Shown here piece after piece: positions 1 to 17,009 of a stretch of DNA of 25,150 nucleotides (its first letter is position 1; each line of letters opens with the position of its first letter). A program made the position numbers and the translations under genes. The stretch is from a virus. Taxonomy: Duplodnaviria > Caudoviricetes. The notes below the pieces were generated by a model that had not been told where the DNA came from, did not search any database, and was given only the letters and a program-made list of their open reading frames with translations. The stretch lies in IMG/VR virus record IMGVR_UViG_3300030331_005526, positions 1 to 25,150 of that record. The stretch is one strand, 5' to 3'.

Positions 1-872
1 AGTATATTTTTATGGGTATGGCAGCGTATGGTCATCCCGTTCACTTGAATGTGGTCGAGAGAGCATTACGCAGAAATAATCATAAAGGAATTAGACTTGG
101 TAATTACGATAGGTGTGATGTCGCCAAGAGTGCAGAAAGAATATTGCAATTAGAATTGAATGAGATATTCGACATAGCATCTCGATATAGTAAGAACATA
201 TGCTACGGGGGTGGTGTTGCCTTGAACTGCGTTGTAAATACAGGTCTAAGGGAAATGTATAACCTTTGGATTATGCCTTGTCCTGGCGACGCAGGGGGTG
301 CTCTAGGAGCAGCATGTCTAGCGTATGGTAAGAAGGTTGCCTTTAGTCCGTACCTTGGATATAATATACAAAAGTTCTGTGATCCAAGGAGAGTTGTTGA
401 TGCACTCCTCGAAAAAAGAGTCGTGGGGGTTGCGAATGGCCGTGCTGAGTTTGGTCCTCGTGCTCTCGGCAATAGAAGTTTATTGGCGGATCCGAGGCAA
501 GCTAGCACAAAAGACTTAGTAAATGAAATCAAACGAAGAGACAAATTCAGACCCTTTGCCCCTGCAGTTTTGGAGGAGCATTGTCAGGACTACTTTGATA
601 TGCCTTCCAATTCGAGATACATGTCCTATGTCTATAAGTGTAAGCAACCTAAGGCGATACCTGCTTGTATACACGTCGATGGTAGTGCGAGGGTACAAAC
701 GGTACCGTTAGATTCAGAGAGTATACTGAGACCAATACTGGAGGCTTGGTATGCACGTACAGGTTGTCCTGTATTGCTGAATACCTCTTTGAATATCAAA
801 GGTAAACCAATGGTCAACACAATAGCAGATGCAAAATTATTTGAGCAGAAGTATGAAATTACAGTTTTCTAA
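1..872 (+). CDS. Carbamoyltransferase, NodU/CmcH/TobZ family (5'-truncated by the window edge)
   Basis: The frame is open from the window start (YIF-MGMAAYG, matching the internal family motif EYxxMGLAAYG), so ATG 12 is probably not the true start. Family motifs present: GGVALNC, PGDAGGALGAA, GRAEFGPRALGNRSLLADP, KRRDKFRPFAP, HVDGSARVQT, LLNTSLNIKGKP. Stop TAA at 870-872. Confidence 0.93.
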   Translation, partial: YIFMGMAAYGHPVHLNVVERALRRNNHKGIRLGNYDRCDVAKSAERILQLELNEIFDIASRYSKNICYGGGVALNCVVNTGLREMYNLWIMPCPGDAGGALGAACLAYGKKVAFSPYLGYNIQKFCDPRRVVDALLEKRVVGVANGRAEFGPRALGNRSLLADPRQASTKDLVNEIKRRDKFRPFAPAVLEEHCQDYFDMPSNSRYMSYVYKCKQPKAIPACIHVDGSARVQTVPLDSESILRPILEAWYARTGCPVLLNTSLNIKGKPMVNTIADAKLFEQKYEITVF

Positions 873-1359
873 ACCACAGAGTCTTGAAGAATATGTCGGA
901 CAGATTCCAAATATAAAATCTCATACTTTACTTTACGGTGAGATGGGTGTGGGGAAATCTACTCTAGGGGAATTATTGAGAGATACTTATGGTTACATTT
1001 TTATTGATGAGATACACAGATATCAAGAAAGTATTCTGACGCTTATGAATCATGATGTTGTTATAGGTGCAACTAAAGACCTAAACCTTCTCTGTGGTGA
1101 TTTGAGGTCTAAATTTGTTTGTCACGAAGTCAAACCTAGTGAGCAAGAATTGGAAACTATTTTACTCACTTACTTAGGAAAAGAAGATTACATTTTTGAC
1201 AGAAGTATAATAACTAAAATTGTAAGGGCATCAAGACTTAATACAAGACGATCACTTAGATTATTCAAAAGAATACAGCAATATTCAAAGTATGTGCGAG
1301 ACACTAATATTATCTCACATAATATAGTAGACTATGTTATAGAAAAAACTGATTTATGA
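853..1359 (+). CDS. Miniaturised RuvB-like AAA+ ATPase-fold protein (168 aa)
   Basis: RuvB motifs occur in the correct order: KPQSLEEYVGQ, HTLLYGEMGVGKSTL (Walker A), FIDEIHR (Walker B), IGAT (sensor 1), LRSKF (Arg-finger region) and RASRLNTRRSLRLFKRI (sensor 2 helix). ATG 853 is preferred over 829 because it gives a shorter overlap with the upstream gene. Confidence 0.75.
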   Translation: MKLQFSKPQSLEEYVGQIPNIKSHTLLYGEMGVGKSTLGELLRDTYGYIFIDEIHRYQESILTLMNHDVVIGATKDLNLLCGDLRSKFVCHEVKPSEQELETILLTYLGKEDYIFDRSIITKIVRASRLNTRRSLRLFKRIQQYSKYVRDTNIISHNIVDYVIEKTDL

Positions 1360-2000
1360 ACTCAATTACTTTTAGTGGGTGTAGTATTACATGGGGTGAC
1401 GAATTAAATGATAGGTTGAATGAAAGATACAGCAAACTTGTTGCAGATCATTACAACACTAAAGGATACAATATGTCAGAATGTGGTATCAGTAATGATG
1501 CGATAGTAAGAAGAACAATTGAATACTTACAAGGCACAAGACCAGATTTAGTAGTTTTACAATTCACTGTGACACAACGAATTGAATTTTTTGATGCAAA
1601 TGTTGAACCAGAGAAATGGACACCTCAAAGATTGAAGTCTGTTAGACAAAGAGATTATTACACAAGAATATACAATGAGGTATTGGGAGCAGAGAACTTA
1701 TGGAAAAATATATTTCTCTTTGATTCTTTTTGTAAAAGCATAGGTCAAAAGTATGTGTCTATAATTGCAGAACATTATGAGAGCACACAAAGGTGGCCAG
1801 AAAGGTATTATGAAAACAAAAAAGGGTATTGGAGAAGTTTGTGTAATGACTATACTCCAGTATGGATGCATATGGATGTACTCAAAGGATTGAAACAATG
1901 CCCTGCTCACTATGCCAATGGATTTAACGGTGGGCATCCAAGTGCGAAAGGTCACAAAGCGATAGCAAATAAAATCATTGAGTTGATAGACGCTATATAA
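1356..2000 (+). CDS. SGNH/GDSL hydrolase-like protein (possible O-acyl esterase or transferase)
   Basis: Block I-like FSGCSITWG, block II-like NMSECGISN, block III-like PDLVVLQFT and block V-like GGHPSAKGH. ATGA overlap with the upstream stop. Confidence 0.7.
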   Translation: MNSITFSGCSITWGDELNDRLNERYSKLVADHYNTKGYNMSECGISNDAIVRRTIEYLQGTRPDLVVLQFTVTQRIEFFDANVEPEKWTPQRLKSVRQRDYYTRIYNEVLGAENLWKNIFLFDSFCKSIGQKYVSIIAEHYESTQRWPERYYENKKGYWRSLCNDYTPVWMHMDVLKGLKQCPAHYANGFNGGHPSAKGHKAIANKIIELIDAI

Positions 2001-2011
2001 AGTGTTATAAT
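1983..2011 (+). promoter_or_regulatory. Host sigma70-type (early-like) promoter upstream of the GT2-like gene
   Basis: TTGATA (1983-1988), a 17-bp spacer, then TATAAT (2006-2011), with an extended -10 TG at 2003-2004. It ends 21 nt upstream of ATG 2033. Confidence 0.7.
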
Positions 2012-2032
2012 GATTATGACTGAACTCTAATT

Positions 2033-2785
2033 ATGGCCAAAGGATTTAAGGTGGTCTCCAAACCACCAATTGAGAAGAAAGATGAATTTGACATCGAAGC
2101 AGCAAAACAACTTATCAAGGGTAAGAGTATTGTATTCTGTTTACCTGGTAGAGGTGTATCATACATTTTTCTAAAGAATTTTGTATCACTCTGTTTTGAA
2201 TTGGTACAGAATGGGGCAAACATTCAAATTGCACAAGACTATAGTTCTATGGTTAATTTTGCAAGATGCAAAGTTTTAGGTGCAAATGTGCTAAGAGGAC
2301 CTGATCAATTACCTTGGGACGGTAAACTAAACTATGACTATCAACTGTGGATAGACAGCGACATTGTATTCAACCTCGAAAACTTTTATAGAGTTATAGC
2401 AATGGATAAAGATATTGCAGGTGGTTGGTATGCTACAGAGGATGGTAGAACCACTTCATGTGCACATTGGTTAGAAGAGGATGATTTCAAAGAAAATGGC
2501 GGTGTGATGAATCACGAGATGGTAGATGGTATTGTAAAACGTCGTAAACCATTCACTGTTGATTACTCTGGGTTTGGTTGGTTACTTATCAAAAAGGGTG
2601 TGTTTGAACATAAAGATATGAAGTATCCTTGGTTCGCTCCTCAAATGCAGGTATTTGACTCAGGTGAAGTACAAGATATGTGTGGTGAGGATGTGTCATT
2701 CTGTCTTGATGCAATCAAAGCAGGGTACGAGATATGGATAGATCCTCAGTGCAGAGTAGGTCATGAGAAAACTAGAATCATATAG
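2033..2785 (+). CDS. GT-A fold (GT2-like) glycosyltransferase-like protein of cyanomyophage type
   Basis: YDYQLWIDSD (DxD motif), SGFGWLLIKKGVFE, CGEDVSFC (GT2-type ED motif) and IWIDPQCRVGHEK. Confidence 0.75.
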   Translation: MAKGFKVVSKPPIEKKDEFDIEAAKQLIKGKSIVFCLPGRGVSYIFLKNFVSLCFELVQNGANIQIAQDYSSMVNFARCKVLGANVLRGPDQLPWDGKLNYDYQLWIDSDIVFNLENFYRVIAMDKDIAGGWYATEDGRTTSCAHWLEEDDFKENGGVMNHEMVDGIVKRRKPFTVDYSGFGWLLIKKGVFEHKDMKYPWFAPQMQVFDSGEVQDMCGEDVSFCLDAIKAGYEIWIDPQCRVGHEKTRII

Positions 2786-2791
2786 ATAGCG

Positions 2792-2983
2792 GTGATGACC
2801 AATATAACTGCTATGGAATTGTACGATATTTACATCAAAGGGAGTAAAGAATTTAGTCAAATATCAGAGGAGGAGATGCTTGATATTACGCAAGAACTGG
2901 CAGATGATTATTACAAAGAAGGGTTTCCTCACCCTGATGAAATAGAGGTAAGATATCTTGGGCATGAAGAAGACCCCCAATAG
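2792..2983 (+). CDS. Small acidic hypothetical protein (start may be GTG 2792, ATG 2795 or ATG 2813)
   Basis: It fills the gap between the GT gene and the terminator on the same strand. Acidic sequence ISEEEMLDITQELADDYYKEGFPHPDEIE. Confidence 0.7.
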   Translation: MMTNITAMELYDIYIKGSKEFSQISEEEMLDITQELADDYYKEGFPHPDEIEVRYLGHEEDPQ

Positions 2984-2994
2984 GGGTCTTTTTT
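2970..2994 (+). terminator. Rho-independent terminator
   Basis: Perfect 8-bp stem AAGACCCC / GGGGTCTT with loop CAATA, running into a T-tract (2989-2994). The TAG stop of the upstream ORF lies at the loop/stem junction. Confidence 0.88.
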
Positions 2995-2998
2995 GTCT

Positions 2999-3015
2999 CT
3001 AAATAATGATAAATA
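2999..3015 (+). promoter_or_regulatory. Tandem T4-like (gp55-type) late promoter boxes
   Basis: CTAAATA (2999-3005) and ATAAATA (3009-3015) resemble the T4 late consensus TATAAATA. They lie between the terminator and the first structural gene. Confidence 0.7.
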
Positions 3016-3035
3016 TACCCAGACTATAATTTGTA

Positions 3036-3440
3036 GTGCCCACACAAAGGTTTTCACAAGGATTCAAGGATATCTCCTTATCCTTTAAAAGACATCCAGT
3101 AACAAATGACATTCTTGCATTAAGAAATGAGGATGCCATAAAACGTTCTGTGCAAAATTTAGTTCGTACGATAAGAGGTGAAGTTTTTTTCAATGAACTC
3201 GTAGGCACAAACATTTCTAATTCACTATTTGAATTAGCGAATGGTGATTATATTGATCCATTGAGAACTCGGATTGAGACTGTAATTAGTAACTTTGAAC
3301 CAAGAGTCAATTTGACTAAAGTTGATTTTCAAACCTTTCCCGATCAAAATGCAATTGATGTTACTATAAATTATGAAATTATTGGACTCTCTGCTCCTTC
3401 ACAAACTGTCAATTTTATTCTAGAACCCACAAGGTTATAA
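3036..3440 (+). CDS. gp25: Baseplate wedge subunit gp25
   Basis: FKDISLSFKRHPVTNDI, NEDAIKRSVQNLVRT, GEVFFN and ISNFEPRV are typical of the GPW/gp25 family. GTG start, directly upstream of gp6. Confidence 0.92.
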   Translation: MPTQRFSQGFKDISLSFKRHPVTNDILALRNEDAIKRSVQNLVRTIRGEVFFNELVGTNISNSLFELANGDYIDPLRTRIETVISNFEPRVNLTKVDFQTFPDQNAIDVTINYEIIGLSAPSQTVNFILEPTRL

Positions 3441-5608
3441 TGGCACTGCAACAATTTACAAATCTAAACTTTGAGGACATCAAAACCTCAATAAAAGATT
3501 ACTTAAGACAAAACTCAAATTTCACTGACATGGATTTTGAGGGGTCAAATCTTTCTGTTATTGTAAATTTGCTTGCATATAATTCATACACCACAGCATA
3601 TAATACTAACGCAGTTGTAAACGAAACATTTATAGACAGTGCTACACTTAGAGAGAACGTAGTATCACTAGCAAGAAATATAGGTTACGTGCCTCGTTCA
3701 AAAAGAGCAGCGAGAATGTTGGTTGATTATGCTATGTCTGGAATAACAACTACTACAAATACAATTACTTTTCAACCTGGTTTGATAGGAAATGGGAGTG
3801 TATCAAATATTAATTTTTTATTCTCTATACCTGAGAAAATGACAGCTTCCGCTACAGAGGGTCAATCAACTGGTGTAATTGAAGTTTTTCAAGGACAATA
3901 TTTAGAATCAAGATTTGTCGTAAATGATTCTCTTCCCAATCAAAGATATATTTTACCTAATAATGGTATTGATACTTCAACCATAAGAGTGAAGGTAAGG
4001 GAGAATAATTCAAGCACTACATCAGAAGAATATAAATTAGTTGATAATATAATTGGCATAACTTCAACCTCAAACATATATCTAATTCAAGAAACCACTG
4101 ATGAAAAGTATGAAGTATTATTTGGTGATAATATTTTTGGAAAAAAATTATCTAATGGAAATTTGATAGAGATATCTTATATTAAAACTGAAGGTAAGGA
4201 CGGAAATGGTGTAAGAAGATTATCATTTTCTGGAACAGTGACTGATGAAAATAATGTTACTGAAACAGAAATATCAACATCTATTATACCACAATTTCCA
4301 TCACAAAATGGTGATGATATAGAAGATGTAAGAAGTATAAGGTATTATGCACCTAGACTATACTCTTCACAACACAGAGCAGTCACAGCAAATGATTATG
4401 AAGCAATTGTTCCATCAGTGTACCCTAATATAGAATCAATAAGTGCCTTTGGTGGTGAGGAGTTGTCACCTCCAAAATACGGTAGAGTTTTTATCGCAGC
4501 AAAACCAAAAAACGGATCGTTTTTATCAGAATTTACTAAAAAACAGATACTTACATCATTAAAAAATTATTCTGTGGCAGGCATAGTGCCAGAGATTATT
4601 GACTTGAAATTTTTATACGTTGAACTTGACACTCATGTATACTATAACGCAAACTTCGTAGGTGATACGCAAAACTTAAGAAGTGATGTGATAACTGCTA
4701 TGACTGCTTTTGCGAGTGGAACAGAATTGAATAAATTTGGAGGTAGATTTAAGTATAGTAAAGTTTTATCTCTCATTGACCGAGTAAGTGATTCTATCAC
4801 TTCAAATATCACTACAATAAGAATTAGAAGAAATTTAGTGGCACAATTAGACGTATTCAGTCAGTATGAAATATGTTTTGACAATACATTTCATAGAAAT
4901 GAATCCAGTTATAACATTAAATCTACAGGTTTCAACGTGTCAAATGTTTCAGGCACGGTGTATTTTTCAGATCAACACACACCTGGCACGGATAAAGGTA
5001 AATTATTTCTTTTTCAAATTGATGGAGATTCAAAAGTCAAAATTTTATCCACGACATTTGGTTCTGTAGATTATAAAAAAGGTGAGGTCATAATTGACAC
5101 TGTGAATATTACAGGCACATTATTACCTGACAACATTATTGAAATACAAGCAGTGCCACAATCAAATGATGTGCTTGCAAGAAAAGAACTATATCTTCAA
5201 TTTGATGTATCGAATAGTAATTTCTTTATGAGAGAGGATCCTATATCTACGGGGGCAAATACATCTGGTACAAGATATGACCCACAATCAAGTTATAGTA
5301 ATGGTGCAAAAGTAAGAGGTGCAATCATAACAAGCTCAGCGAGCACCTCAAATTTAGTTGGATACGTGAACGGAAATCCTTACTACGGACCTTTTCACTT
5401 TCACCCAAATACAGGTAAGAAAATGGTTGGTGCGTTCCATGTTTCCACTCCTCATGACACCATATACGCTACCAAGGCAGAGAGTTTAGGAATTGCTGCT
5501 GACAGTGCCCCTATAGATAGTTCGACAACTAGCACGTCAATGACATCGACAACATCGTCGTCATCTTCATCATCATCCTCAAGCAGTAGTAGTGGATACG
5601 GATACTAA
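3440..5608 (+). CDS. gp6: Baseplate wedge subunit gp6 with C-terminal extension
   Basis: LNFEDIKTSIKDYL, FTDMDFEGSNLS, NETFIDSATLRENVVSLARNIGYVPRS, RAVTANDYEA and PPKYGRVFIAAKP match T4-type gp6. TAATG overlap with gp25. Confidence 0.93.
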   Translation: MALQQFTNLNFEDIKTSIKDYLRQNSNFTDMDFEGSNLSVIVNLLAYNSYTTAYNTNAVVNETFIDSATLRENVVSLARNIGYVPRSKRAARMLVDYAMSGITTTTNTITFQPGLIGNGSVSNINFLFSIPEKMTASATEGQSTGVIEVFQGQYLESRFVVNDSLPNQRYILPNNGIDTSTIRVKVRENNSSTTSEEYKLVDNIIGITSTSNIYLIQETTDEKYEVLFGDNIFGKKLSNGNLIEISYIKTEGKDGNGVRRLSFSGTVTDENNVTETEISTSIIPQFPSQNGDDIEDVRSIRYYAPRLYSSQHRAVTANDYEAIVPSVYPNIESISAFGGEELSPPKYGRVFIAAKPKNGSFLSEFTKKQILTSLKNYSVAGIVPEIIDLKFLYVELDTHVYYNANFVGDTQNLRSDVITAMTAFASGTELNKFGGRFKYSKVLSLIDRVSDSITSNITTIRIRRNLVAQLDVFSQYEICFDNTFHRNESSYNIKSTGFNVSNVSGTVYFSDQHTPGTDKGKLFLFQIDGDSKVKILSTTFGSVDYKKGEVIIDTVNITGTLLPDNIIEIQAVPQSNDVLARKELYLQFDVSNSNFFMREDPISTGANTSGTRYDPQSSYSNGAKVRGAIITSSASTSNLVGYVNGNPYYGPFHFHPNTGKKMVGAFHVSTPHDTIYATKAESLGIAADSAPIDSSTTSTSMTSTTSSSSSSSSSSSSSGYGY
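5515..5605 (+). repeat. Low-complexity Ser/Thr tract at the gp6 C-terminus
   Basis: Encodes SSTTSTSMTSTTSSSSSSSSSSSSSGYGY using mixed TCN and AGY codons. Confidence 0.85.
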
Positions 5609-8600
5609 TGATACAGACATCATTAACAAAAGTCAAAATATATGAAATAATTGAAAGTCAAATACCAGAGGTAATTGACAATGAGAATCCTCTTTTTGGA
5701 GATTTTCTAAAACAGTATTATATTTCTCAAGAGTATCAAGGTGGTGCTATAGATATCGCTGAAAATCTTGTTGAGTACAAAAGTTTAGATTTTTTAAACA
5801 CTCGAAATCTCATTGGTTTTACCTCAATCACTCGATATACAAGACCAAATGATGATATAATTTATGTCGATTCAACAAATGGTTGGCCTAACCAATACGG
5901 TTTATTAAAAATTGATAATGAGATTATTACATACACAGGTATAGGTTCAACGACATTTGAGGGTTGTGTAAGAGGTTTCAGTGGTATTGAAAACAATAAC
6001 AAAACTAATGAACCTGAATATCTCACATTTTCCAATACTGGTATATCAACACATGGTGTGAGTGCTAGAGTACATAATCTTAGTAATGTTTTCTTACAAG
6101 AATTTCTAAAAAAACTTAAGAAACAAGTACTATCAGGATTTGCTGAAAGAAAATTAGATGAAAAACTCAATCAATCTAATTTTATAAGACAATCAAAAGA
6201 TTTTTACAAATCAAAAGGAACTGAAGAGGCATTTAAAATATTATTCGGAGCACTATATGCTGAGAAGGTTGAAATGATTCAACCATCAAAATTTATCATA
6301 AGTCCATCAGACGCTGATTATATTGTAAATGATGTATTATTATGTGAGTTGATTTCTGGTAATCCACTTAAGATAACGGGTCAGAGTCTTGTGCAAGAGA
6401 CAATCCCCTTACAAACAAGTGGTTCAATTTACAATGTTGAGAAATCTATCATAGGTGGCAAAACTTATTATAAGATAGCAATATCAAAAGGAACAACTTT
6501 TGGTAAGTTTCAGCAAGTTGGTAAAACATTCCTAACACAATCATCACCTGTGGGATCCACAGTATTGAATGTAGACTCGACTATTGGATTTGGTGCGACA
6601 GGAAGAATAAGTTATGAAGATAGAAATATATCCTACACATCAAAATCACTTACACAATTTTTAGGTGTAGATCCGCTTACATCACCATGCGGAATAGGTT
6701 CGACAGTAAAATCTGGTATTATCGCATTTTCATATGAAGATGGAGATTTAAGTTTTCCTGTAACTTTCAATATATTAGGTGTGTTGAATAAGTTTGTTGG
6801 GGATCCAATCAATCAACAAGAAGACTCAATTATAAACGTAAGTCAATTAGGTAAGATAGAAAAGGAGTTAAGATATAAAACATGGATATACAACACAGCA
6901 TCAACTTATGCTGTAGAGACATTCTTATTACGTAATACAAATAATTATGATTTTATCCTCACCGCAAAAGAATTTTCACTATATGTGGGTGATCAAATTG
7001 AAGTTATTGATACAATACAACCCTCGATAATTTTTAATGGTAGTATAACCTTCGTATATGATGACGACAATGAATTTTCAATATCAGTAAACGTACCTAC
7101 ACTTGATGAAAACAGAAAATATAAAATTAGAAGAATACTTAAACTGCAGGGTGGTATAACAGCTGACGTTCAAAACACTTATTCTCAATTTGGAGTGCCT
7201 TACGTTGCTTCAAACAGTCTCCCACACTGGCCTATTGATCCACAAAAAAGAGTAAGGACATTTTCAAATGCAGGTATATCAACCACACAAGTAGAGATAA
7301 ATTTACCTGATCACAATTTACATGATGGTGATTTAGTCGTATATTCATCTTCGGGTATAGGCACACTTACAAATTTGAATGAGGGTGAAGCATATTTTAT
7401 CAAAAAAGTTGATAGTAGCACTGTCAAACTTGCTTACACAGGAGAAAACGTAAGGAGAGGTCAATTTATTACAGCATTTTTTGGTAATGATATTGGAGTA
7501 ACAACTTCTCATACACTTACGCCATTTTCTATCTTTGGTAATGAGATGGGTGGACAAAAATTACTTAGAAAATTTGACAAGCCCGAATTCGGTGATAGAG
7601 AAAAAACTATTCAGGGAGGAGTTGGTTTATTTGTTAACGGTGTTGAAGCATACTCATATAAATCATCGGACATTGTATATTTCGGACCTTTGCAATCTGT
7701 TGAAGTATTGAATAAAGGCACAGATTATGATATAGTGACTCCACCAAGATTATCTGTTACACAAGACGGACATACTGGTGTGGGAGCATCTGTTATTGCA
7801 CAAGTAGAGGGTAAGTTACGAGAAGTTTTAGTTGACAAAGAAGGACTAGATTACGAAGAGATACCTACCGTAAAAATTTCAGGAGGAAATAATACTACAG
7901 CTGTAATAAAGGCAAAAATGAAGACAGTTCATCATACTGTTGAATTTGATGCGACATCATCAGGTGGTGTAGTAAACACAGCAACTGATAGGTTTGTATT
8001 TACAAAACCACATGGTCTGAAAGATGCTGAAGAGATAATATATGATGTAAATGGAAGTAGTGCTATTGGAATCGGTGTTACACCAGGTTCATTGGTAGAC
8101 ACTGCCCCATATTTTGTTGTGAAAATAGATGATTTTCAAATACATTTGTCAGAATCAAAAACAAAAGCACTTGCTGGAATTGGCACAATAGATCTATCAA
8201 CAAATGGTGGTGGATTACAAAGATTTAAGACAATCGCAAGAAGACAAAAAGTTGATAAAATTTTAGTCGAAGATGAGGGTTCCTTTAAAAATAGAGAATT
8301 ACGCACCATCTCAGGTATCAATACATTTACAGATACCATCAATATTCCTTCACATGGATTCAACAATTCTGAGATAGTAAAATACTCATCAGATACATCA
8401 GTCATAGGTGGACTTACAAATAACGCAGAGTACTTCGTAGATAAAATAAACGACGATAGTTTTAGACTATCAAATAATAAAGAATTATCTTCTTACATTT
8501 CATTAAAAAATGACGGACTAGGCACACATACATTTCAAGATCCACCTATTTCTATTGAGATTAGCGGAAGACAAGGTATATCAACTGACAATGCAAGTGC

Positions 8601-11600
8601 AACCCCAGTTATACGTGGTGATATATTTGGGGTGCATGTGAGTGAGAAAGGCAGTGATTTTGGATCGACTGTAATAAATGACAATTACAAACCATTTATC
8701 AACATTGTGGTTGGGGAGAAAGCATTCCTACAACCATTCATTGTTGATGGGGGTGTAGATCAAATAATTGTAAAAGACGGTGGTGAAAATTTCTTTAGCA
8801 CCCCTGATATTATTATCACTGGAGATGGCACAGGTTGTAAAGTGAAAGCAAATGTGTCAAATGGTAAGATAATAAGCATCAGTGTCATAGACAAAGGTAA
8901 AGGGTATAATCAACTCACTACCACTGCAAGAGCAATTACACCTGGCGAGGGAGCAATATTCTCTAGTGTAATTAAGTCATGGACAATTAATCAAGTAGAG
9001 AGATATGCTAAATTTGGTGATGTTAAGGATGATGATGGTTTTCTTGAGACACCCAGAGACAAAGATTTAGGTAATCCATACGTAAATTATTACATTCCAA
9101 GAAATCTAAGGAACTTCTTGGGTGATGTGGGACAGGATCATTCACCGATTGTTGGTTGGGCGTATGACGGTAATCCAATTTACGGACCTTTCGCCATAGT
9201 TGATGGTAATAAAAAATATATTGAATCAAGTTATCGTAAGTTAGCTGGTCAAAGAGTTGACGGACCTAATATCAGTATATACCCTGCTGGATTTTTCATA
9301 GAAGATTTTACATATGTTGAGGGCACAGGTGATCTTGACGAGCACAATGGAAGATTTGCTCCTACACCTGAGTATCCTAATGGTGTATATGCTTACTACA
9401 CCACAGTCGAACCTATACAAGTCAACAATGCCAATAGTCCTTTTGATGGTGTTAGGACTCCTTTGTTCCCTTACATAATAGGAGATTCTTACTACTCTAC
9501 TTTAGATAAATTCAATACTGCATTTGAATCAACTCAAGATTTAGATCCAATATCATTAGGTTTTGTCAGAAATACGCAAGCATACAACATTAATGAATAT
9601 GATTTTGTACCTAATGCCAACAAAAATACAAATATTATCTCCAAGATAACAAAAACAAAAAATGGTTTTGTTGATAGAATTGAAATCGTAAATTCAGGTA
9701 AAGATTACAATGTGGGAGATAAATTAGTATTTGATAACAGTATTACTGGTGGTTTTGGTGCTATAGGTCAGGTGAATTTTATTGAAGGACCTGGCATAAG
9801 CACTATCACATCAACTATTACAGAGATTGATGATATCGTATTGATATCAAATGGTGACACTGTGACTGGAATACATACAGGTCCTCACAATCTTGCTAAT
9901 AATGCATTCGTAGAAGTGATAGGTATATCTACGTCAACACACACTAATCTAACAACACAATCAAGAATAAAGGTAAAGACTGTAAGATCTGGAATTGGTA
10001 TGAGTATGGGCACCAGTGCTGCAACTGGATTGACCACAAGTGTATTATTAAGTGAGTGGTTACCTGATGTTATAAAAGATTATAAGTTCAAAATTAATGA
10101 TTTAGTCAAGATTGAAAATGAGCAACTCAAGATTTATAATTTCGATTTCAATAATAATAGAGTAGAATTTCTTAGAGCACAGAATGGCACAACTGGTGTC
10201 GCTCATTCATTTGGAACAGAACTGACAAGAATAGAAAATGAATTTACTTACTCACTAGAAAAACCTGTCAATCTGAACACACCAGAAGATGAAATTTACT
10301 ATTTCAATGCTGAAACGTCTGTAGGAACAGGTAATACTTTTGGTGTAGGAATCGGTACCACAGTCACAGTATCTGGGAGAGGTGGTAATCAAACAACATC
10401 ATTCTTTGGAAACGAGACAAAGGATATATTCATACCAACAAGATCATTCTACTTACCAAATCATCCATTTCAAACTGGAGATAAGGTAGAGTACAATCCT
10501 GGTGCTGGTACATCGATAAGATATCAAACAGATGCAATGAAACGTGTCAACACATCATTCACTGCTCCGATGCCACCTGAGGTATTTTTACAAGTTATTG
10601 ACAGAAATCTAGTTGGAGTTGTGACTACAAGAACTGGGATAGGATCTGACTTACAGAGAGTCATGCTTAGTGCAAATGCAGGTATAGGAAATACACATTT
10701 TCTTAAGACCAAAAAAGATGTAGTTACAGGAACCTTAAGAATTATAGAGGTGACAGCAACTTCAAATAATCATACATTTGAAAGGAATGATGTAATTAAT
10801 CTCACTGTAGTGTCATCTGCAACAAGTTCAGTTACAGCAACATACGATCCTGGCACAAGGTTCGTGAGCATAGGTTCATCTGTAAACCCACCTATATCAT
10901 TAACAATCGGTGATACTTTGGAAATAGACACCTCAAGCGTGTCTCTTGAGAATACAAAATTATTATTTTTCTTAGATCAAGATTACAATAAACCTTTTGT
11001 TGGCACTGGTAAATCTGCGATTGAAGTTATTAATAGTGGTATACCTGGCAATGCAGGTTCTAAAACATCCATACATTTTACTACTAGAGTTCCTGATGTG
11101 CTCTACTATAAATTTTTACCACTTCAAAACACAAAAATTATTGAAATCAATAAAGAGATAAAAAATTATTCTAAGGTATTTGTAAACAAGAGTAAATTTA
11201 CTGGTGCACATACTATCCTATCTAAGGACACAAATACTTTTAGTTGGAATTTATTTACTGTCCCTGAACGTGTAGGATATTCTAGCGAATCAAGTTTATC
11301 TTACATCACCAATTCAAAAAATATCAAGGGTGGTGTGGCAAGTGTTCTATTGCAAGGAACTGGATATGATTACAAGGATATACCTCAAGTATCTGTTGCA
11401 TCAACCACAGGATCCTCAGCTAACCTCAAAGCGTTTGGAAGAGATATAGGAAAAATAGATGAAGTAAGAATGGTAGAGACGGGTTATGATTATCCATCTG
11501 ATCTGACATTACAACCACAAGCTTCTGTTCAACAGATAATCAATTTGAAGGACAACTTTGCAGTTGAGAGTGTAGCAATAACATCGACTGGAAAAAATTA

Positions 11601-13881
11601 TCTTACACCTCCAAATTTTGTAATTTATAATAGTAAAACTAATTCAGTAAATGAAAATGCAAAATTTGAAGCAGAAATCAAAGGTGGATCAGTTTCAAAT
11701 GTAAAGGTAATAACTGGTGGTGGAAATCTAAGTGCTGGTGATGTTGAACTACTCGCAATTAATAATTCAAACGGTGTTGGTATCATCAGTGCCACATATA
11801 ATGATCCTAATGTAACACTTAGATTACAGACTCCTCTTACAGGTTTTAACACAGATGTGCCAATGCCATTTGATATTGGTGATAAAGTGTTTGTGGAGAA
11901 TATTGGCGTGAGTACAGGAAATGGATATAATTCATCTGATTTTGGATATAAAACATTTACACTTACAGGAATAGATACTGCTTTTGGTAATTTGAATGGA
12001 GCAACAATCACCTATGTTGTTGACAAAGATCCTGGTTTACATGATTTTGGAAAGTTTGGAACAGTTACTAAAGATAAAGATATTGCTAAATTTGAGGTAA
12101 AACTCATAGAAAGCACATTTCTAAATGGCGAACCAGTTGTATCATCATCAGGAAAAGAAGCAAATGTTGTTATTGGAAAGGGCAAAACAAGAAATGTATT
12201 GAGGGTGGACACCTTAGTAGGATTCAATACAGGTGATGTTATAACTGGTAAATTTTCTAAAGCAGGTGGTACCATAGAATCAACTATAGAATATACAGGA
12301 CATTTTACTCTTGATACATCTACAGAAAAATCATTTGGTTGGGAGAAAGATACAGGAAAACTAAATGATTTCTATCAAAGGGTACAAGATAACGATTACT
12401 ATCAACATTTTTCATATTCACTTAAGAGTTTTGTTGGTATCAACAGTTGGAGTGAACCTGTAGATTCTCTTGCACATATAGCAGGGTTCAAGAAACACTC
12501 AGATTTACTAATCAACTCTGTTCCTGTTGTTGCACCTCAACCATCTGGTATATCATCAGGTACAGGTAATGTTATCATAATTGATTCCGAAGCATCGTTA
12601 CTTGAAACACCTAATTTTGATTTAGTGAGTGAAAATACAAATATTGATGAAAATATTTCAGATGAAGTTAGATTCCAATCAGGAAGATTTGGTGACGCTA
12701 TAATTTGTTCAACAAATAGAGTATTAAGTATAGATGACCTAAGTCCACAATTCTATTCAGATCCAAACCTTGTTAGATCTGTGGAACTTGATACCTTTGA
12801 CATGATCTCAGGAGGACCTGGCGGTGATGGTATAAACGCTATCAAATACTATGCACAGGTTGTGCTTGATACAACACAAGACACATCTTTCAACATGACT
12901 CAATATACTGAATTTGTTGTGTTCCATGATGGCACTGATGCATATATCAACAATTATTCAGAACTTAGCGATGCTGATGATTTGGGTGAATTTATGACTG
13001 AAACAAACGGACCTCTTGCAAGTGTATCTTTTGTTCCAAATAATTCATCATTCAGTTATGATGTCACATTCCATAAAGAAATACTCACAAATGCTGTGGG
13101 CGTAGCGTCAACATCATTTGGATTCCAAGAATATAAAGGTAAAACACTTGCATTGAATGTATTTGGATCATCAGTGGTACAGGAAGTTGATGCGATTGAT
13201 GCCACAATGTACAAATCTGGCAGCATACTTGTTGCAGCAAGAGGACCTCTTGGTGAGAAAGAAATAGATGAATTTACGTGGTTAGCAAAAGGTTCTAATA
13301 ATGTGGTCTTCACCAATTTTGGTAAAATGGATGCTGACACAGATATCGGTCAATTTCAAATCAATATGTTGAGTAATGTATTGAAGTTGAGACATACATC
13401 ACCTGTGGGCATGGCAGTGACAGTGACAGCATTCTCAAGATCAGTAGGAGTGGCACAAACTCATAGTAACACTGGTATCACAGGATCATACGTCATTGGT
13501 GATACTGAGTTAGATGGTTCGTTCACAAATATTGTTGCGAGTGGATCACCCACACAGCAAGTAATATCAACTAAAGCGTATGCTAATTATACAACTTGTA
13601 GATTTCACGTAGAAATACACAACACTACTGATGACGAATATTCAGTGTTTATTGTGGGTGCAAATTCATTTGGTGGGAATGCAGCATTCAACAAATACAA
13701 TAATCTATTCACAGATGATAGTGAAAAACGTAATATGGCAAATACTGACATACATATTACAGGAACTAATACACAATTACGTTTCTTACCAGTTGCAAAT
13801 AAGGCATACACGGTAAGAGTAGCTGAACTCAAAATTGACAAACCAGATTCAGTAGCAAGCGATCAAACTTACAGCCTATAA
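5608..13881 (+). CDS. gp7: Large baseplate wedge initiator gp7-like protein (2757 aa) with repeated beta modules and a YHYH-like segment
   Basis: Located between gp6 and gp8. The N-terminus has FLKQYYISQE and KDFYKSKGTEEAFKILFGALY. A later block, QRVQDNDYYQHFSYSLKS...HIAGFKKHSDL, is typical of T4-like gp7. TAATG overlap with gp6. Confidence 0.8.
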   Translation: MIQTSLTKVKIYEIIESQIPEVIDNENPLFGDFLKQYYISQEYQGGAIDIAENLVEYKSLDFLNTRNLIGFTSITRYTRPNDDIIYVDSTNGWPNQYGLLKIDNEIITYTGIGSTTFEGCVRGFSGIENNNKTNEPEYLTFSNTGISTHGVSARVHNLSNVFLQEFLKKLKKQVLSGFAERKLDEKLNQSNFIRQSKDFYKSKGTEEAFKILFGALYAEKVEMIQPSKFIISPSDADYIVNDVLLCELISGNPLKITGQSLVQETIPLQTSGSIYNVEKSIIGGKTYYKIAISKGTTFGKFQQVGKTFLTQSSPVGSTVLNVDSTIGFGATGRISYEDRNISYTSKSLTQFLGVDPLTSPCGIGSTVKSGIIAFSYEDGDLSFPVTFNILGVLNKFVGDPINQQEDSIINVSQLGKIEKELRYKTWIYNTASTYAVETFLLRNTNNYDFILTAKEFSLYVGDQIEVIDTIQPSIIFNGSITFVYDDDNEFSISVNVPTLDENRKYKIRRILKLQGGITADVQNTYSQFGVPYVASNSLPHWPIDPQKRVRTFSNAGISTTQVEINLPDHNLHDGDLVVYSSSGIGTLTNLNEGEAYFIKKVDSSTVKLAYTGENVRRGQFITAFFGNDIGVTTSHTLTPFSIFGNEMGGQKLLRKFDKPEFGDREKTIQGGVGLFVNGVEAYSYKSSDIVYFGPLQSVEVLNKGTDYDIVTPPRLSVTQDGHTGVGASVIAQVEGKLREVLVDKEGLDYEEIPTVKISGGNNTTAVIKAKMKTVHHTVEFDATSSGGVVNTATDRFVFTKPHGLKDAEEIIYDVNGSSAIGIGVTPGSLVDTAPYFVVKIDDFQIHLSESKTKALAGIGTIDLSTNGGGLQRFKTIARRQKVDKILVEDEGSFKNRELRTISGINTFTDTINIPSHGFNNSEIVKYSSDTSVIGGLTNNAEYFVDKINDDSFRLSNNKELSSYISLKNDGLGTHTFQDPPISIEISGRQGISTDNASATPVIRGDIFGVHVSEKGSDFGSTVINDNYKPFINIVVGEKAFLQPFIVDGGVDQIIVKDGGENFFSTPDIIITGDGTGCKVKANVSNGKIISISVIDKGKGYNQLTTTARAITPGEGAIFSSVIKSWTINQVERYAKFGDVKDDDGFLETPRDKDLGNPYVNYYIPRNLRNFLGDVGQDHSPIVGWAYDGNPIYGPFAIVDGNKKYIESSYRKLAGQRVDGPNISIYPAGFFIEDFTYVEGTGDLDEHNGRFAPTPEYPNGVYAYYTTVEPIQVNNANSPFDGVRTPLFPYIIGDSYYSTLDKFNTAFESTQDLDPISLGFVRNTQAYNINEYDFVPNANKNTNIISKITKTKNGFVDRIEIVNSGKDYNVGDKLVFDNSITGGFGAIGQVNFIEGPGISTITSTITEIDDIVLISNGDTVTGIHTGPHNLANNAFVEVIGISTSTHTNLTTQSRIKVKTVRSGIGMSMGTSAATGLTTSVLLSEWLPDVIKDYKFKINDLVKIENEQLKIYNFDFNNNRVEFLRAQNGTTGVAHSFGTELTRIENEFTYSLEKPVNLNTPEDEIYYFNAETSVGTGNTFGVGIGTTVTVSGRGGNQTTSFFGNETKDIFIPTRSFYLPNHPFQTGDKVEYNPGAGTSIRYQTDAMKRVNTSFTAPMPPEVFLQVIDRNLVGVVTTRTGIGSDLQRVMLSANAGIGNTHFLKTKKDVVTGTLRIIEVTATSNNHTFERNDVINLTVVSSATSSVTATYDPGTRFVSIGSSVNPPISLTIGDTLEIDTSSVSLENTKLLFFLDQDYNKPFVGTGKSAIEVINSGIPGNAGSKTSIHFTTRVPDVLYYKFLPLQNTKIIEINKEIKNYSKVFVNKSKFTGAHTILSKDTNTFSWNLFTVPERVGYSSESSLSYITNSKNIKGGVASVLLQGTGYDYKDIPQVSVASTTGSSANLKAFGRDIGKIDEVRMVETGYDYPSDLTLQPQASVQQIINLKDNFAVESVAITSTGKNYLTPPNFVIYNSKTNSVNENAKFEAEIKGGSVSNVKVITGGGNLSAGDVELLAINNSNGVGIISATYNDPNVTLRLQTPLTGFNTDVPMPFDIGDKVFVENIGVSTGNGYNSSDFGYKTFTLTGIDTAFGNLNGATITYVVDKDPGLHDFGKFGTVTKDKDIAKFEVKLIESTFLNGEPVVSSSGKEANVVIGKGKTRNVLRVDTLVGFNTGDVITGKFSKAGGTIESTIEYTGHFTLDTSTEKSFGWEKDTGKLNDFYQRVQDNDYYQHFSYSLKSFVGINSWSEPVDSLAHIAGFKKHSDLLINSVPVVAPQPSGISSGTGNVIIIDSEASLLETPNFDLVSENTNIDENISDEVRFQSGRFGDAIICSTNRVLSIDDLSPQFYSDPNLVRSVELDTFDMISGGPGGDGINAIKYYAQVVLDTTQDTSFNMTQYTEFVVFHDGTDAYINNYSELSDADDLGEFMTETNGPLASVSFVPNNSSFSYDVTFHKEILTNAVGVASTSFGFQEYKGKTLALNVFGSSVVQEVDAIDATMYKSGSILVAARGPLGEKEIDEFTWLAKGSNNVVFTNFGKMDADTDIGQFQINMLSNVLKLRHTSPVGMAVTVTAFSRSVGVAQTHSNTGITGSYVIGDTELDGSFTNIVASGSPTQQVISTKAYANYTTCRFHVEIHNTTDDEYSVFIVGANSFGGNAAFNKYNNLFTDDSEKRNMANTDIHITGTNTQLRFLPVANKAYTVRVAELKIDKPDSVASDQTYSL

Positions 13882-16800
13882 TGTCTTTTCAATTAGCATC
13901 AGTCAATAAACAATTCAATACTCAAAGTGAAAGTTTTCAAAGGTCTTTCAACCTAACTCATCAGGGTGATCCTATATTTTCACACGAGTTTGATGCCAGT
14001 TCAAGTACAAATGTTCTTTTAGGTTCTGATACAATTGTAATAAAAAATCATTTTTATGTTACTGGTGAGGAATTGACATATGATACGGGAGGTGGCACAG
14101 GGATAGGTATAGATCATACAAGTAGTGGTATTGGTGCTGACACATTATTACCATCATCTGTATTTGTTATCAAAGTAAGTGAAGATAAATTCAAACTGGC
14201 ATCTACCAAGGCATTTGCCCTCTCAAACGATCCTATAGGATTGACCACAGTAGGTGTAGGTTCAACACATAGATTTACTGCACAAAAACCTGATACTAAG
14301 TGTATTATATCAATCGACAATGTTATACAATCACCTCTAATAAGCATCACAGGAACAGCGACCACAACTGAAAATACAATGGTCAATCGTGAGGTAAGAT
14401 TTGCTGATGTCAGAGGATTTAAACAGTATGACATGATACAAATAGGAAATGAGATACTTAGAATTCAAGTTATTGGTTTTGGTACAGAGTCAAATAATGT
14501 ACTTTTAGATAGAGCGTGGATGGGAACTACTGAAGAAGCACACTTGAATAATTCCACAGTAACTTTATTGCAAGGTGATTATAACATCAGACAAGACAAG
14601 ATACATTTTGCAGATGTGCCCTTTGGTGGAACAAGACAATTTGTAGGTGTCTCATCTTTTAATGTTGATGTAACAACAAATAGATTTACTGCATTGACTG
14701 AAGTATTTGATACTGGCACACAAGTAAAACTTAGATCTATTACTCCACCATCACCTCTAGTAGGTAACAGAGATTACTTCATAATAAAAAATGACAACAA
14801 CAACTTTTCATTTGCAGAAACAAAAGGAGATGCTCTCACTGGTGTTGGCATAACACTTACATCTGCAGGCATAGGAACACACAAATTACTTGTTGCTGAC
14901 GTAGTGCAGGGAAGTGAGTTTCAGGGTAGGGCATTTACAAGATCAGATTATAGTGGTAACTTTTTGCTTGATGATTTAGCACCAAGTTTTACAGGTGTAG
15001 CAAAAACATTTACAATGACAAGTGGTGGATCAAATATAACAGGAATCAATACTGATTTTGGTGTTGTATTGATCAATAATGTATTTCAAAAACCAGAGAC
15101 TGATTATGAATACTTAAGTAATTCTGGCATTACATCAATAAGATTTACTGGTAATAATATTGAAGGCCAAACTGAGGTATACTCAACCTCTGATGTCAAC
15201 GCTAATAGATTACCAAGAAGGGGTATCATATCTGGTTTAGGAAATTCTCAAGGTTTTGGATACCAACAAACAATTGCTGGTTTTGGTACAGCAGTTGTCT
15301 CTGGTTTTGGAACTATAACAGTGTCGATGGGATATACTGGTTCAGGTTATAGGGAAGCTGGCACTCAATTTCGTGTCAGAGTTTTAGGTGGCAACCCCAC
15401 AACTGCTGCAGCAGGCACATTCTCAGTGCAAGATGGTAGAATAAAAAAAGTCTTTATGGATAACACGCCAGGTGTTGGTTACACATTTACAGATGTGCCA
15501 TTACTTGAGTTTGATTCTCCTTATGCATATGATGACATCAAACTTATAAGTGCAAATACAGGTATAGGTGCATCTGTTTCCATCACAATTGGTGTAGGAG
15601 ATAGTATCTCAGAATCAAACATCATAAACACTGGATATGGTTTTACGGTTGGGGAGGTGCTTACCATAGCAGGTATTCCTACCAATTTTAGTGCTGGTAC
15701 GAATTTTCAACCTGCAACCTTTACCGTCACTGAGACAAGTGATGATAAATTTTCAGGTTGGGTATTAGGTAAGTTTCAAATACTAGATGATTTTTCAGAC
15801 GAATTCAATGGAAGTAAAAAAATATTTACAATAACAGAAAATAATACACCAGTCAGTATTGAAAAGGCAACAGGAAATCTCATAAGTCTTGATGATGTTA
15901 TTTTAATTTTTATAAATGATGTACTTCAAAAACCTGGTGTTGCATATAAATTCAACGGTGGCACACAAATAGAGTTTACTGAAGCACCTGCGTTTGGATC
16001 ATCATTGCAGGTTTTATTTTATCGTGGCACAGACTCTGATGTTACTGAAGCATCAGCAGTAGAGACAATTACAAAAGGTGATATTATTACTTTACAAAGT
16101 CCACCAGATGACAGATCAATACTCAAACAAAATCCAAGGACTATAAGAGAGACCGTATCAAGAGACACATTACAAACAACAATTTATAAAGCTCAGGGTA
16201 TAAGTGCAACTAAGAGCACCCTAAGACCAGTTACGTGGAGAAAACAAGAGCACGATAAAGTTGTTGATGGTGCTATTGTAAGTAAAGCACGAGGATTATA
16301 TGCAGGTCAAATTTTCCCTGCCACTAGAATTATAGCTGACGTTGCTACAACTGACACCGTGGTGTATGGACAATCAGGAATAATAGGGTTTACCAAGACA
16401 GAGGATCCGAACACTTCAACTTTTGGTGTAAAGATTATTGATACTGATAAGGACAATAATGGTTTCGGCACAACCACGTTTACAAACCCATATAAATCAA
16501 TCTCAGGTGTAACAATGGTAGGTGATCATGGTGAGATTGTTGGAGTTGGTGTAACATCAAAAGGATTACAATTAGATTTTTCAATACCATCTAATTCACC
16601 ACTCAGAGAAAATAATCTTGGGGGTATCACAGAAACTGGAATAGGCACTGGTGATTACTTTGTTGTGAGTAGATCGAATGTATCCAGTGGAGGTATTCTG
16701 ACTGCTAGAACAAGCAATGGGTCTGCTGTTGTTGGAATTGCAACTACATGCCTTGATGGTGTGTATCAAGTAAGTCATATAACCAGAGTTGGATCAACGC

Positions 16801-17009
16801 AAACATTTCGTGTCCACACTGAACTTTCATCTGGTCATGGAGTGGTAGCAAGTGTGGGAAGTAGTGTCCTTGGTTCCTACTCATACGCTAAATTTACAAC
16901 TGGAGCTGTAGGTTTAGCGTTTACCGTGAATACCTTGAATGGTCTTACAGGATTATCCACTGCTCCACAAATCCAAAGAACAACTAAATTGTCACTGGAT
17001 TACACATAA
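13881..17009 (+). CDS. Virion structural protein (1042 aa), probably baseplate; resembles the C-terminal part of large cyanophage gp7 proteins
   Basis: TAATG overlap with gp7. G/T/S-rich. It shares repeat modules with gp7 (KNHFYVTGEELTY, IQIGNEILRI) and has two LDD..F.G..K.FT...IN.V.QKP modules. Confidence 0.7.
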   Translation: MSFQLASVNKQFNTQSESFQRSFNLTHQGDPIFSHEFDASSSTNVLLGSDTIVIKNHFYVTGEELTYDTGGGTGIGIDHTSSGIGADTLLPSSVFVIKVSEDKFKLASTKAFALSNDPIGLTTVGVGSTHRFTAQKPDTKCIISIDNVIQSPLISITGTATTTENTMVNREVRFADVRGFKQYDMIQIGNEILRIQVIGFGTESNNVLLDRAWMGTTEEAHLNNSTVTLLQGDYNIRQDKIHFADVPFGGTRQFVGVSSFNVDVTTNRFTALTEVFDTGTQVKLRSITPPSPLVGNRDYFIIKNDNNNFSFAETKGDALTGVGITLTSAGIGTHKLLVADVVQGSEFQGRAFTRSDYSGNFLLDDLAPSFTGVAKTFTMTSGGSNITGINTDFGVVLINNVFQKPETDYEYLSNSGITSIRFTGNNIEGQTEVYSTSDVNANRLPRRGIISGLGNSQGFGYQQTIAGFGTAVVSGFGTITVSMGYTGSGYREAGTQFRVRVLGGNPTTAAAGTFSVQDGRIKKVFMDNTPGVGYTFTDVPLLEFDSPYAYDDIKLISANTGIGASVSITIGVGDSISESNIINTGYGFTVGEVLTIAGIPTNFSAGTNFQPATFTVTETSDDKFSGWVLGKFQILDDFSDEFNGSKKIFTITENNTPVSIEKATGNLISLDDVILIFINDVLQKPGVAYKFNGGTQIEFTEAPAFGSSLQVLFYRGTDSDVTEASAVETITKGDIITLQSPPDDRSILKQNPRTIRETVSRDTLQTTIYKAQGISATKSTLRPVTWRKQEHDKVVDGAIVSKARGLYAGQIFPATRIIADVATTDTVVYGQSGIIGFTKTEDPNTSTFGVKIIDTDKDNNGFGTTTFTNPYKSISGVTMVGDHGEIVGVGVTSKGLQLDFSIPSNSPLRENNLGGITETGIGTGDYFVVSRSNVSSGGILTARTSNGSAVVGIATTCLDGVYQVSHITRVGSTQTFRVHTELSSGHGVVASVGSSVLGSYSYAKFTTGAVGLAFTVNTLNGLTGLSTAPQIQRTTKLSLDYT

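Follow-up and report, generated by a model that had tools for sequence, protein, structure and literature searches.

The question raised by this locus is what a phage does with a protein that carries the motif series of bacterial RuvB in about half the length. The window, i.e., the whole analysed stretch of 25,150 nucleotides, is a viral fragment that, by a completeness estimate, represents about 12% of a genome. Translation of the ORF at 853..1359 (hereafter mini-RuvB) agrees with the sequence-only reading in that the product contains, in RuvB order, PQSLEEYVGQ, HTLLYGEMGVGKST, YIFIDEIHR, IGAT, LRSKF and SRLNTRRSLRLFKR, with the spacers of 6, 11 and 14 aa given there. At its two ends the ORF shares 20 nt with the preceding gene and 4 nt with the following one, and an in-frame ATG upstream, at 829, would yield an alternative form of 176 aa. 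Its parts are as follows.

853..1359, plus strand: mini-RuvB ORF, 168 aa
871..903, plus strand: N-terminal nucleotide box K7-Q17 (K/R-PxSLEEYVGQ); the next helix of RuvB (16 aa) is deleted
937..963, plus strand: Walker A, G29-T37, invariant in 42 distinct variants
997..1020, plus strand: Walker B strand I49-R56 (IFIDEIHR), abutting the P-loop helix owing to a 28-aa deletion of beta2-alpha2
1066..1077, plus strand: sensor-1 position G72-K75, where the RuvB Thr (T. maritima T158) is an invariant Lys; the 26-aa deletion ahead of it removes the end of the signature motif and the presensor-1 hairpin
1102..1116, plus strand: arginine-finger box L84-F88, where the finger (T. maritima R170) is the invariant Lys87
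1141..1347, plus strand: complete helical lid domain; the protein stops where the winged-helix domain would start
1231..1272, plus strand: sensor-2 region S127-R140, with basic residues of the RuvB type

Several lines of evidence connect this protein to RuvB. Its best NCBIfam families are both RuvB (E = 5.9e-10 and 1.4e-8), with scores below the curated cut-offs (38.6 vs 282 bits and 34.1 vs 299 bits); RuvB accounts for the top 8 of 26 matches in a PDB sequence search; and 119 of the 120 longer proteins among the matches listed contain the RuvB C-terminal domain. Over shared columns, the mean identity is 31.5% to 18 canonical RuvBs, compared with 27.3% for 7 hairpin-less viral RuvBs and 23.0% for 11 RarA proteins; of the 20 RuvB rows entered in the comparison set, 13 had been picked because they resemble the query. 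In a tree of 50 rows obtained by a quick search, the mini family does not fall within the RarA clade; its stem measures 3.09 changes per column, and no sister group is resolved. A Foldseek search started with the predicted model, which was itself built from an alignment containing RuvBs, identifies RuvB first (TMq about 0.8). The lid and finger-box residues are of the RuvB type, and the nearest relatives are RuvB.

The competing ancestry would be RarA/MgsA or a clamp loader, AAA+ modules that naturally consist of a hairpin-less core plus a lid and that obtain the top Z-scores in a wide structure search. There, MgsA (Z 14.4, rmsd 3.3, 163 aligned) and the clamp-loader gamma subunit (Z 14.3, rmsd 2.6, 158 aligned), along with clamp loaders down to Z 14.2, rank above RuvB (1hqc, Z 11.6, rmsd 2.6, 161 aligned), and the 18 diagnostic columns split 7 for RuvB vs 4 for RarA. 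Among the same structure rows, however, RuvB has the highest identity (28%), in line with the mean identities, the C-terminal domain of the longer matches and the tree position given above. The hallmarks of RarA/MgsA, namely TENP after sensor 1, the GD-x-R lid motif and the C-terminal domains, are absent: mini-RuvB reads KDLN and SRLNTR instead and ends after the lid. Furthermore, the RarA spacer is 21 residues long, RarA/MgsA and clamp loaders retain beta2 and differ from mini-RuvB in their lid and finger motifs, and gp44 of a complete relative of the phage (see below) resembles mini-RuvB at the P-loop only. This ancestry thus appears very improbable, and the earlier choice of RuvB over RarA or a clamp loader is borne out by the families, PDB matches, tree and identities. 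That mini-RuvB is of RuvB origin and is not a motor can be held with high confidence.

What was removed is readily seen from the spacers. Compared with canonical RuvB (TIGR00635/PRK00080; PF05496, PF17864 and PF05491), with which it shares the order and sequence of the N-box, Walker A, DEIHR, GAT, finger-box and lid motifs as well as the predicted core-plus-lid fold, mini-RuvB has 11 rather than 27 residues between the N-box and Walker A, 15 rather than 43 between Walker A and Walker B, 15 rather than 41 between Walker B and sensor 1, and a tail of 98 rather than 181-191 residues. These differences amount to four clean losses, which we take to be the N-terminal helix, the beta2-alpha2 unit, the RuvA-binding presensor-1 hairpin and the winged helix. 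The spacer and tail comparison thereby confirms the absence of the hairpin and the winged helix noted in the sequence-only reading, the deletion list of which missed the N-terminal helix and beta2-alpha2. A search for the winged-helix profile PF05491 gives no match in mini-RuvB, and the stop codon follows directly after the lid; among 7997 scored candidates, a sample that weighs little for absence, no close longer form was found.

An AlphaFold2 model from an 89-row alignment (pLDDT 90.7, pTM 0.83) shows a compact core of four strands and a full lid, with high confidence across the deletion joints. With the mini family alone the model is poor (pLDDT 56.1), so that the predicted fold leans on full-length RuvBs. 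As modelled, mini-RuvB is predicted to fold and to bind ATP or ADP. If so, this 19-kDa protein would be a natural minimal AAA+ module, a folded core without beta2, in which the N-terminal helix and the edge strand are dispensable.

The residues of the active site fall into two groups. According to the accessible part of PMC9477746, the nucleotide site of RuvB comprises the Walker A Lys/Thr, the Walker B Asp-Glu, an N-terminal Arg and the sensor-2 Arg, whereas the elements of hydrolysis that act in trans are the arginine finger and a Glu-Asp signature motif. In the 42 variants described below, K35, S36, D52 and E53 are always kept and position 7 is K or R; the sensor-2 residue R132 is present in 40 of 42 and is Lys in the other 2, and Q17 varies in 4 of 42. 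By contrast, the sensor-1 Thr is replaced by an invariant K75, aligned with T158 of T. maritima (1in8 is T158V), the arginine finger is an invariant K87 in all 42 variants, and the signature motif is gone, its Glu column reading N, S or G. Hence the view that the motifs are intact does not hold, while the specific observation that the LRDRF finger reads LRSKF does, with Lys87 fixed throughout the family.

The same asymmetry is apparent at the subunit faces. Salt-bridge residues between RuvB subunits are catalogued in PMC10272136, and they were placed by offset onto the RuvB consensus. On the nucleotide-holding face, as so placed, three of six interface residues are kept (R7, R205 and R212, corresponding to K/R7, R132 and K139) and three salt-bridge residues are lost (Q142, Q143 and a winged-helix Asp); on the activating face, placed in the same way, none of six is identical (R34, E39, E115, D116, R147 and R158, which are deleted or S23, N66, deleted or H67, D76 and K87). 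The retention of two of the three kept residues needs no partner because both are also nucleotide ligands. In addition, the RuvB-invariant lid residues S127, R136, L137 and R140 are retained despite the missing winged helix. Given that half of the residues survive on one side and none on the other, mini-RuvB appears to be a one-faced protein, unlikely to build a working ring by itself. Neither could it be a branch-migration motor: lacking the winged helix, it would not move DNA; lacking the hairpin, which in RuvB binds domain III of RuvA (as stated in the accessible text of PMC9477746), it would not be run by RuvA; and with Lys for the finger and the signature acids gone, it would not activate a neighbouring subunit. 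As its natural alleles show selection against change (see below), it is likely to be a repurposed protein.

Such replacements might also be expected of a relic, i.e., a captured ruvB that shrank and became a near-neutral passenger, open mainly because the downstream SGNH gene starts in its stop codon. A protein search yields 34 matches (87-99% identity), of which 31 are full length; with cluster members, there are 55 identifiers for 42 distinct proteins, either 168 or 172 aa long, a count that leaves out three shorter entries (P0033-P0035). Two of these three start internally, at Met65, and the third differs at its N-terminus; they may be broken alleles, as would fit a relic, or contig-edge calls. 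The 42 variants answer the proposal to look for homologs of the same length, and 9 of them carry one of three different 4-aa insertions after residue 128, beside sensor 2 in the lid. Between two allele groups, represented by six DNA copies, the dN/dS of the gene is 0.21-0.24; comparison of the window with the related locus L002 gives changes at 24 of 114 synonymous vs 22 of 390 non-synonymous sites (Fisher p 3.8e-6). Most neighbours are more constrained, with dN/dS of 0.03-0.14 for the carbamoyltransferase, the glycosyltransferase-like protein, gp25 and gp6.

The relic explanation accords with the replaced catalytic residues, the long branch, the rarity of the gene and a bias of protein searches toward intact ORFs. 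An open-frame constraint alone, however, does not yield a dN/dS of 0.24 with mostly conservative changes, and it does not account for deletions that take out whole structural elements, or for the identity of 38 of 79 RuvB-conserved columns in mini-RuvB vs 12.7% identity at variable columns. In a simulation with 46 random changes, 88% of the copies gain a stop and a mean of 32 residues change, compared with 17 observed. A relic is accordingly quite improbable. The mini-RuvB gene is under purifying selection and is not decaying, given the 42 full-length variants, the dN/dS of about 0.24 and the conserved columns kept on a long branch; the earlier preference for selection over decay is upheld by these data and by the invariant residues.

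The mini family is narrow and rare among its relatives. A phmmer search for distant short relatives over 1.84 billion representatives returns a single match at E <= 1e-10, the mini family itself; a contig scan recovers 0 of 18 candidates; in the Atlas, the additional hits are limited to the cluster of the family itself and to generic AAA clusters; and the RuvB-like matches in 15 records of isolated phages are all full-length. Short contigs cover the gene in 4 of 4 RNA-labelled runs, which were chosen for containing it; one of these is assigned to RNA by guess only, and the runs may also contain DNA.

The genomic context provides further clues to the origin of the gene. Its surroundings are the following.

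12..872, plus strand: Nol/NodU-like carbamoyltransferase, the 5' part of which lies outside the window (458 aa in L002)
853..872, plus strand: left junction; the mini-RuvB start codon lies inside the carbamoyltransferase 3' end, at -19 from its stop
1356..1406, plus strand: right junction; SGNH codons 1-17 are identical in the window, L001 and L006, with divergence right after
1356..2000, plus strand: SGNH/GDSL-like hydrolase gene (weak Pfam matches, under cut-off)
2033..2785, plus strand: phrog_1574 protein with weak glycosyltransferase likeness; the baseplate block begins at 3036

The carbamoyltransferase was compared in 80 viral loci, which are not independent of each other: mini-RuvB is present in 3, an SGNH match comes immediately after the carbamoyltransferase in 58, and the remaining 19 have other content there. 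At 36 of the 58 empty-site loci, this SGNH match starts at -19 from the carbamoyltransferase stop, i.e., at the point where mini-RuvB starts, and contigs that jump from 845-862 to 1370 are found in 4 of 4 DNA runs. The mini-RuvB gene is thus an optional accessory insertion that captured the overlapping start of the next gene. Because the insertion sits on the start codon that SGNH uses in empty-site alleles, its coupling to both neighbours is inherited from that arrangement, which makes the coupling a weak argument for a function shared with them.

The gene also appears to have moved recently. It is 98-99% identical between the window and L001, whereas flanking 150-nt bins are mostly at 63-89%, and the dS of this pair is 0.045 for mini-RuvB vs 1.6-1.8 for gp25 and gp6. 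These values, together with the end of the identity 17 codons into SGNH, suggest a recent exchange of the gene between phage genomes by recombination, for which the first 17 SGNH codons are the likely anchor; the conserved FSGCSITWGDEL start of the SGNH gene may act in this capacity. The slot behind the carbamoyltransferase (853-872 and 1356-1406 in the window; L072-L142) is a swap site: it holds SGNH paralogues at 23-79% identity, in places as tandem pairs, whereas L087 has a 2OG-Fe(II) oxygenase there and L104, L106 and L120 have no gene. In L002, four ORFs upstream of the carbamoyltransferase (381-3935) have no Pfam match at E 0.01, and some start with what we take to be a sulfotransferase-like P-loop motif. 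A scan of the window reveals no promoter-like site of mini-RuvB's own; a sigma-70-like site ahead of the phrog_1574 gene (1983-2011) has 11 of 12 matches and an upstream TG, and the number of such sites in the window overall is no higher than in shuffles. As far as the accessible part of PMC3037559 goes, T4-like cyanophages carry LPS gene clusters and sporadic carbamoyltransferases, the function of which is left open there.

With a carbamoyltransferase, an SGNH hydrolase and a glycosyltransferase-like protein as neighbours, mini-RuvB could be a monomeric kinase-like enzyme of a sugar-modification island, in which the new Lys75 or Lys87 replaces the lost finger. In small P-loop kinases the Walker B strand comes straight after the P-loop helix, an arrangement that the beta2-alpha2 deletion reproduces; there are weak N-terminal matches to dNK (E 2e-4), SKI, guanylate, shikimate and dephospho-CoA kinases, and D52-E53, K75 and K87 are all invariant. 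All the kinase matches are nevertheless under cut-off (21.5 vs 27 bits for dNK and 15.7 vs 22.1 bits for SKI) and mostly cover the P-loop alone, and no kinase is among the best 50 rows of the wide structure search or the Foldseek matches listed. Unlike the shikimate, dNK and dephospho-CoA kinases, mini-RuvB keeps an AAA+ lid and has no evident acceptor domain, the model showing only a 12-residue helix at the would-be acceptor site, and the same neighbours occur without mini-RuvB in 77 of 80 loci. A kinase-like role is considered unlikely, though not far behind the reading favoured below.

The source is likely a T4-like cyanophage, judging from the relatives of the window. Its gp6-like protein is closest to that of Marine virus AG-345-D19 (64%), followed by Synechococcus myoviruses (about 50%), and a complete 192-kb relative, found via its carbamoyltransferase (67% identity), carries two photosystem II core genes. 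This genome has no ruvA, and its sole match to a RuvB profile is its clamp loader. Likewise, no ruvA or ruvC was found in the 25-kb record, as had been stated before, that is, in about 12% of a genome. The baseplate block contains very long structural ORFs at 5608-13881 (2757 aa), 13881-17009 (1042 aa) and 18588-25150 (over 2187 aa). The last 100 codons of the gp6-like baseplate protein (3440-5608) form a C-terminal extension with a Ser/Thr run and GYGY at the end, which differs between alleles and is unmatched in the isolates listed.

The reading that we favour, at a probability of roughly 0.35, is that mini-RuvB caps the RuvB rings of the host from one side. A protein with the Walker motifs and the lid would dock on a host RuvB subunit, its pocket-and-lid face accepting the activating face of that subunit; ring growth would end there, motor rings would fail to close, and the blocked host RuvAB would be kept off the phage's own recombination intermediates. 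This role is preferred because the kept face holds RuvB-specific lid residues that outlived the winged helix, and it fits better than that of a poison subunit, as a dominant-negative subunit needs both faces and only one is partly kept. The asymmetric retention of the faces, the lid residues, the dN/dS, the exchange of the gene, the fold and the photosystem II-bearing relative without ruvA are compatible with a cap, and a variable lid loop with three insertions might be expected of a host-facing surface. On the other side stand the loss of half of the kept-face salt-bridge residues, the variation at R132 and Q17, a dN/dS above that of most neighbours, the presence of the gene in only 3 of 80 loci, its setting in a sugar-modification island and the dependence of the model on full-length RuvBs; moreover, an identity to canonical RuvB of about 31% and a stem of 3.09 seem far for a mimic. 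A complex prediction for Prochlorococcus RuvB with mini-RuvB scores 0.00 and carries no weight either way.

The data on selection and exchange equally apply to a nucleotide-binding adaptor or decoy that addresses a partner other than RuvB (another host AAA+ protein, a defence protein or a phage protein) through its basic lid helix and variable loop, and the strong divergence from RuvB would be natural in such a protein. No co-varying partner gene, however, is seen in the loci examined, the PADLOC matches are at the P-loop level only, and the RuvB-specific lid residues would be left unexplained; this role is rather doubtful, yet a near competitor of the cap. As regards the one-sided cap, the fuller proposition, that marine cyanophages trimmed host RuvB to an AAA+ module with four strands and a single face, which they exchange between genomes to cap rings and so inhibit the host Holliday-junction motor, is put forward as tentative. 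Were the cap real, phages would be inhibiting host recombination with a protein derived from the very subunit that it targets, and this protein could serve as a template for one-sided inhibitors of AAA+ proteins. Apart from its function, mini-RuvB is a real reduction of RuvB that is under selection and apparently undescribed: a literature search by title and start of abstract, with subscription papers mostly outside its reach, gave nothing relevant on a phage mini-RuvB or a phage RuvAB inhibitor.

Loss of the hairpin, as judged from sequence, is recurrent in phage RuvBs. About 40 RuvB-like proteins (P0038, P0067-P0105), mostly with an N-terminal CxxC...CxxC motif, have a Walker B to sensor 1 spacer of 19 residues and keep the winged helix and the finger; four of them are encoded on viral contigs of 55-153 kb (L153:5989-6984, L155:5992-6978, L154 and L156), and in L153 and L155 the neighbouring genes also hold many cysteine-rich motifs. 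A motif scan reveals three further hairpin-less types (L026, L045 and L046/L054). Neither RuvA (one weak match) nor RuvC is found over cut-off in the five carrier records, and a literature search gave nothing describing such proteins. Like mini-RuvB, the whole set (P0038, P0067-P0106; L026, L045, L046/L054, L153-L156) is viral and has a shortened Walker B to sensor 1 spacer, here of 19-21 residues; unlike mini-RuvB, these proteins are about 290-350 aa long, and their N-terminal helix, beta2, winged helix and finger Arg are all present. Because those parts are retained, they could still be DNA motors, and the P0038/P0067-P0105 family is possibly a RuvA-independent one. The further losses of mini-RuvB are met nowhere else in the phmmer search of the 1.84 billion representatives. 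The hairpin-less clade was considered as a direct ancestor, as suggested by P0038, but this gains no support from the mean identity (27.3%) or from the tree, in which the two do not group.

Together, mini-RuvB and the hairpin-less proteins would mean that phages repeatedly retain RuvB without RuvA. Among the latter, the genes at L026:1279-2058 and L045:1014-1925 (minus strand), both on viral contigs, differ in the ends of their deletions, and the gene at L046:921-1838 (minus strand), with the same protein in the complete 115-kb record L054, adjoins an integrase gene and lies near an Hjc-like resolvase gene on the opposite strand.
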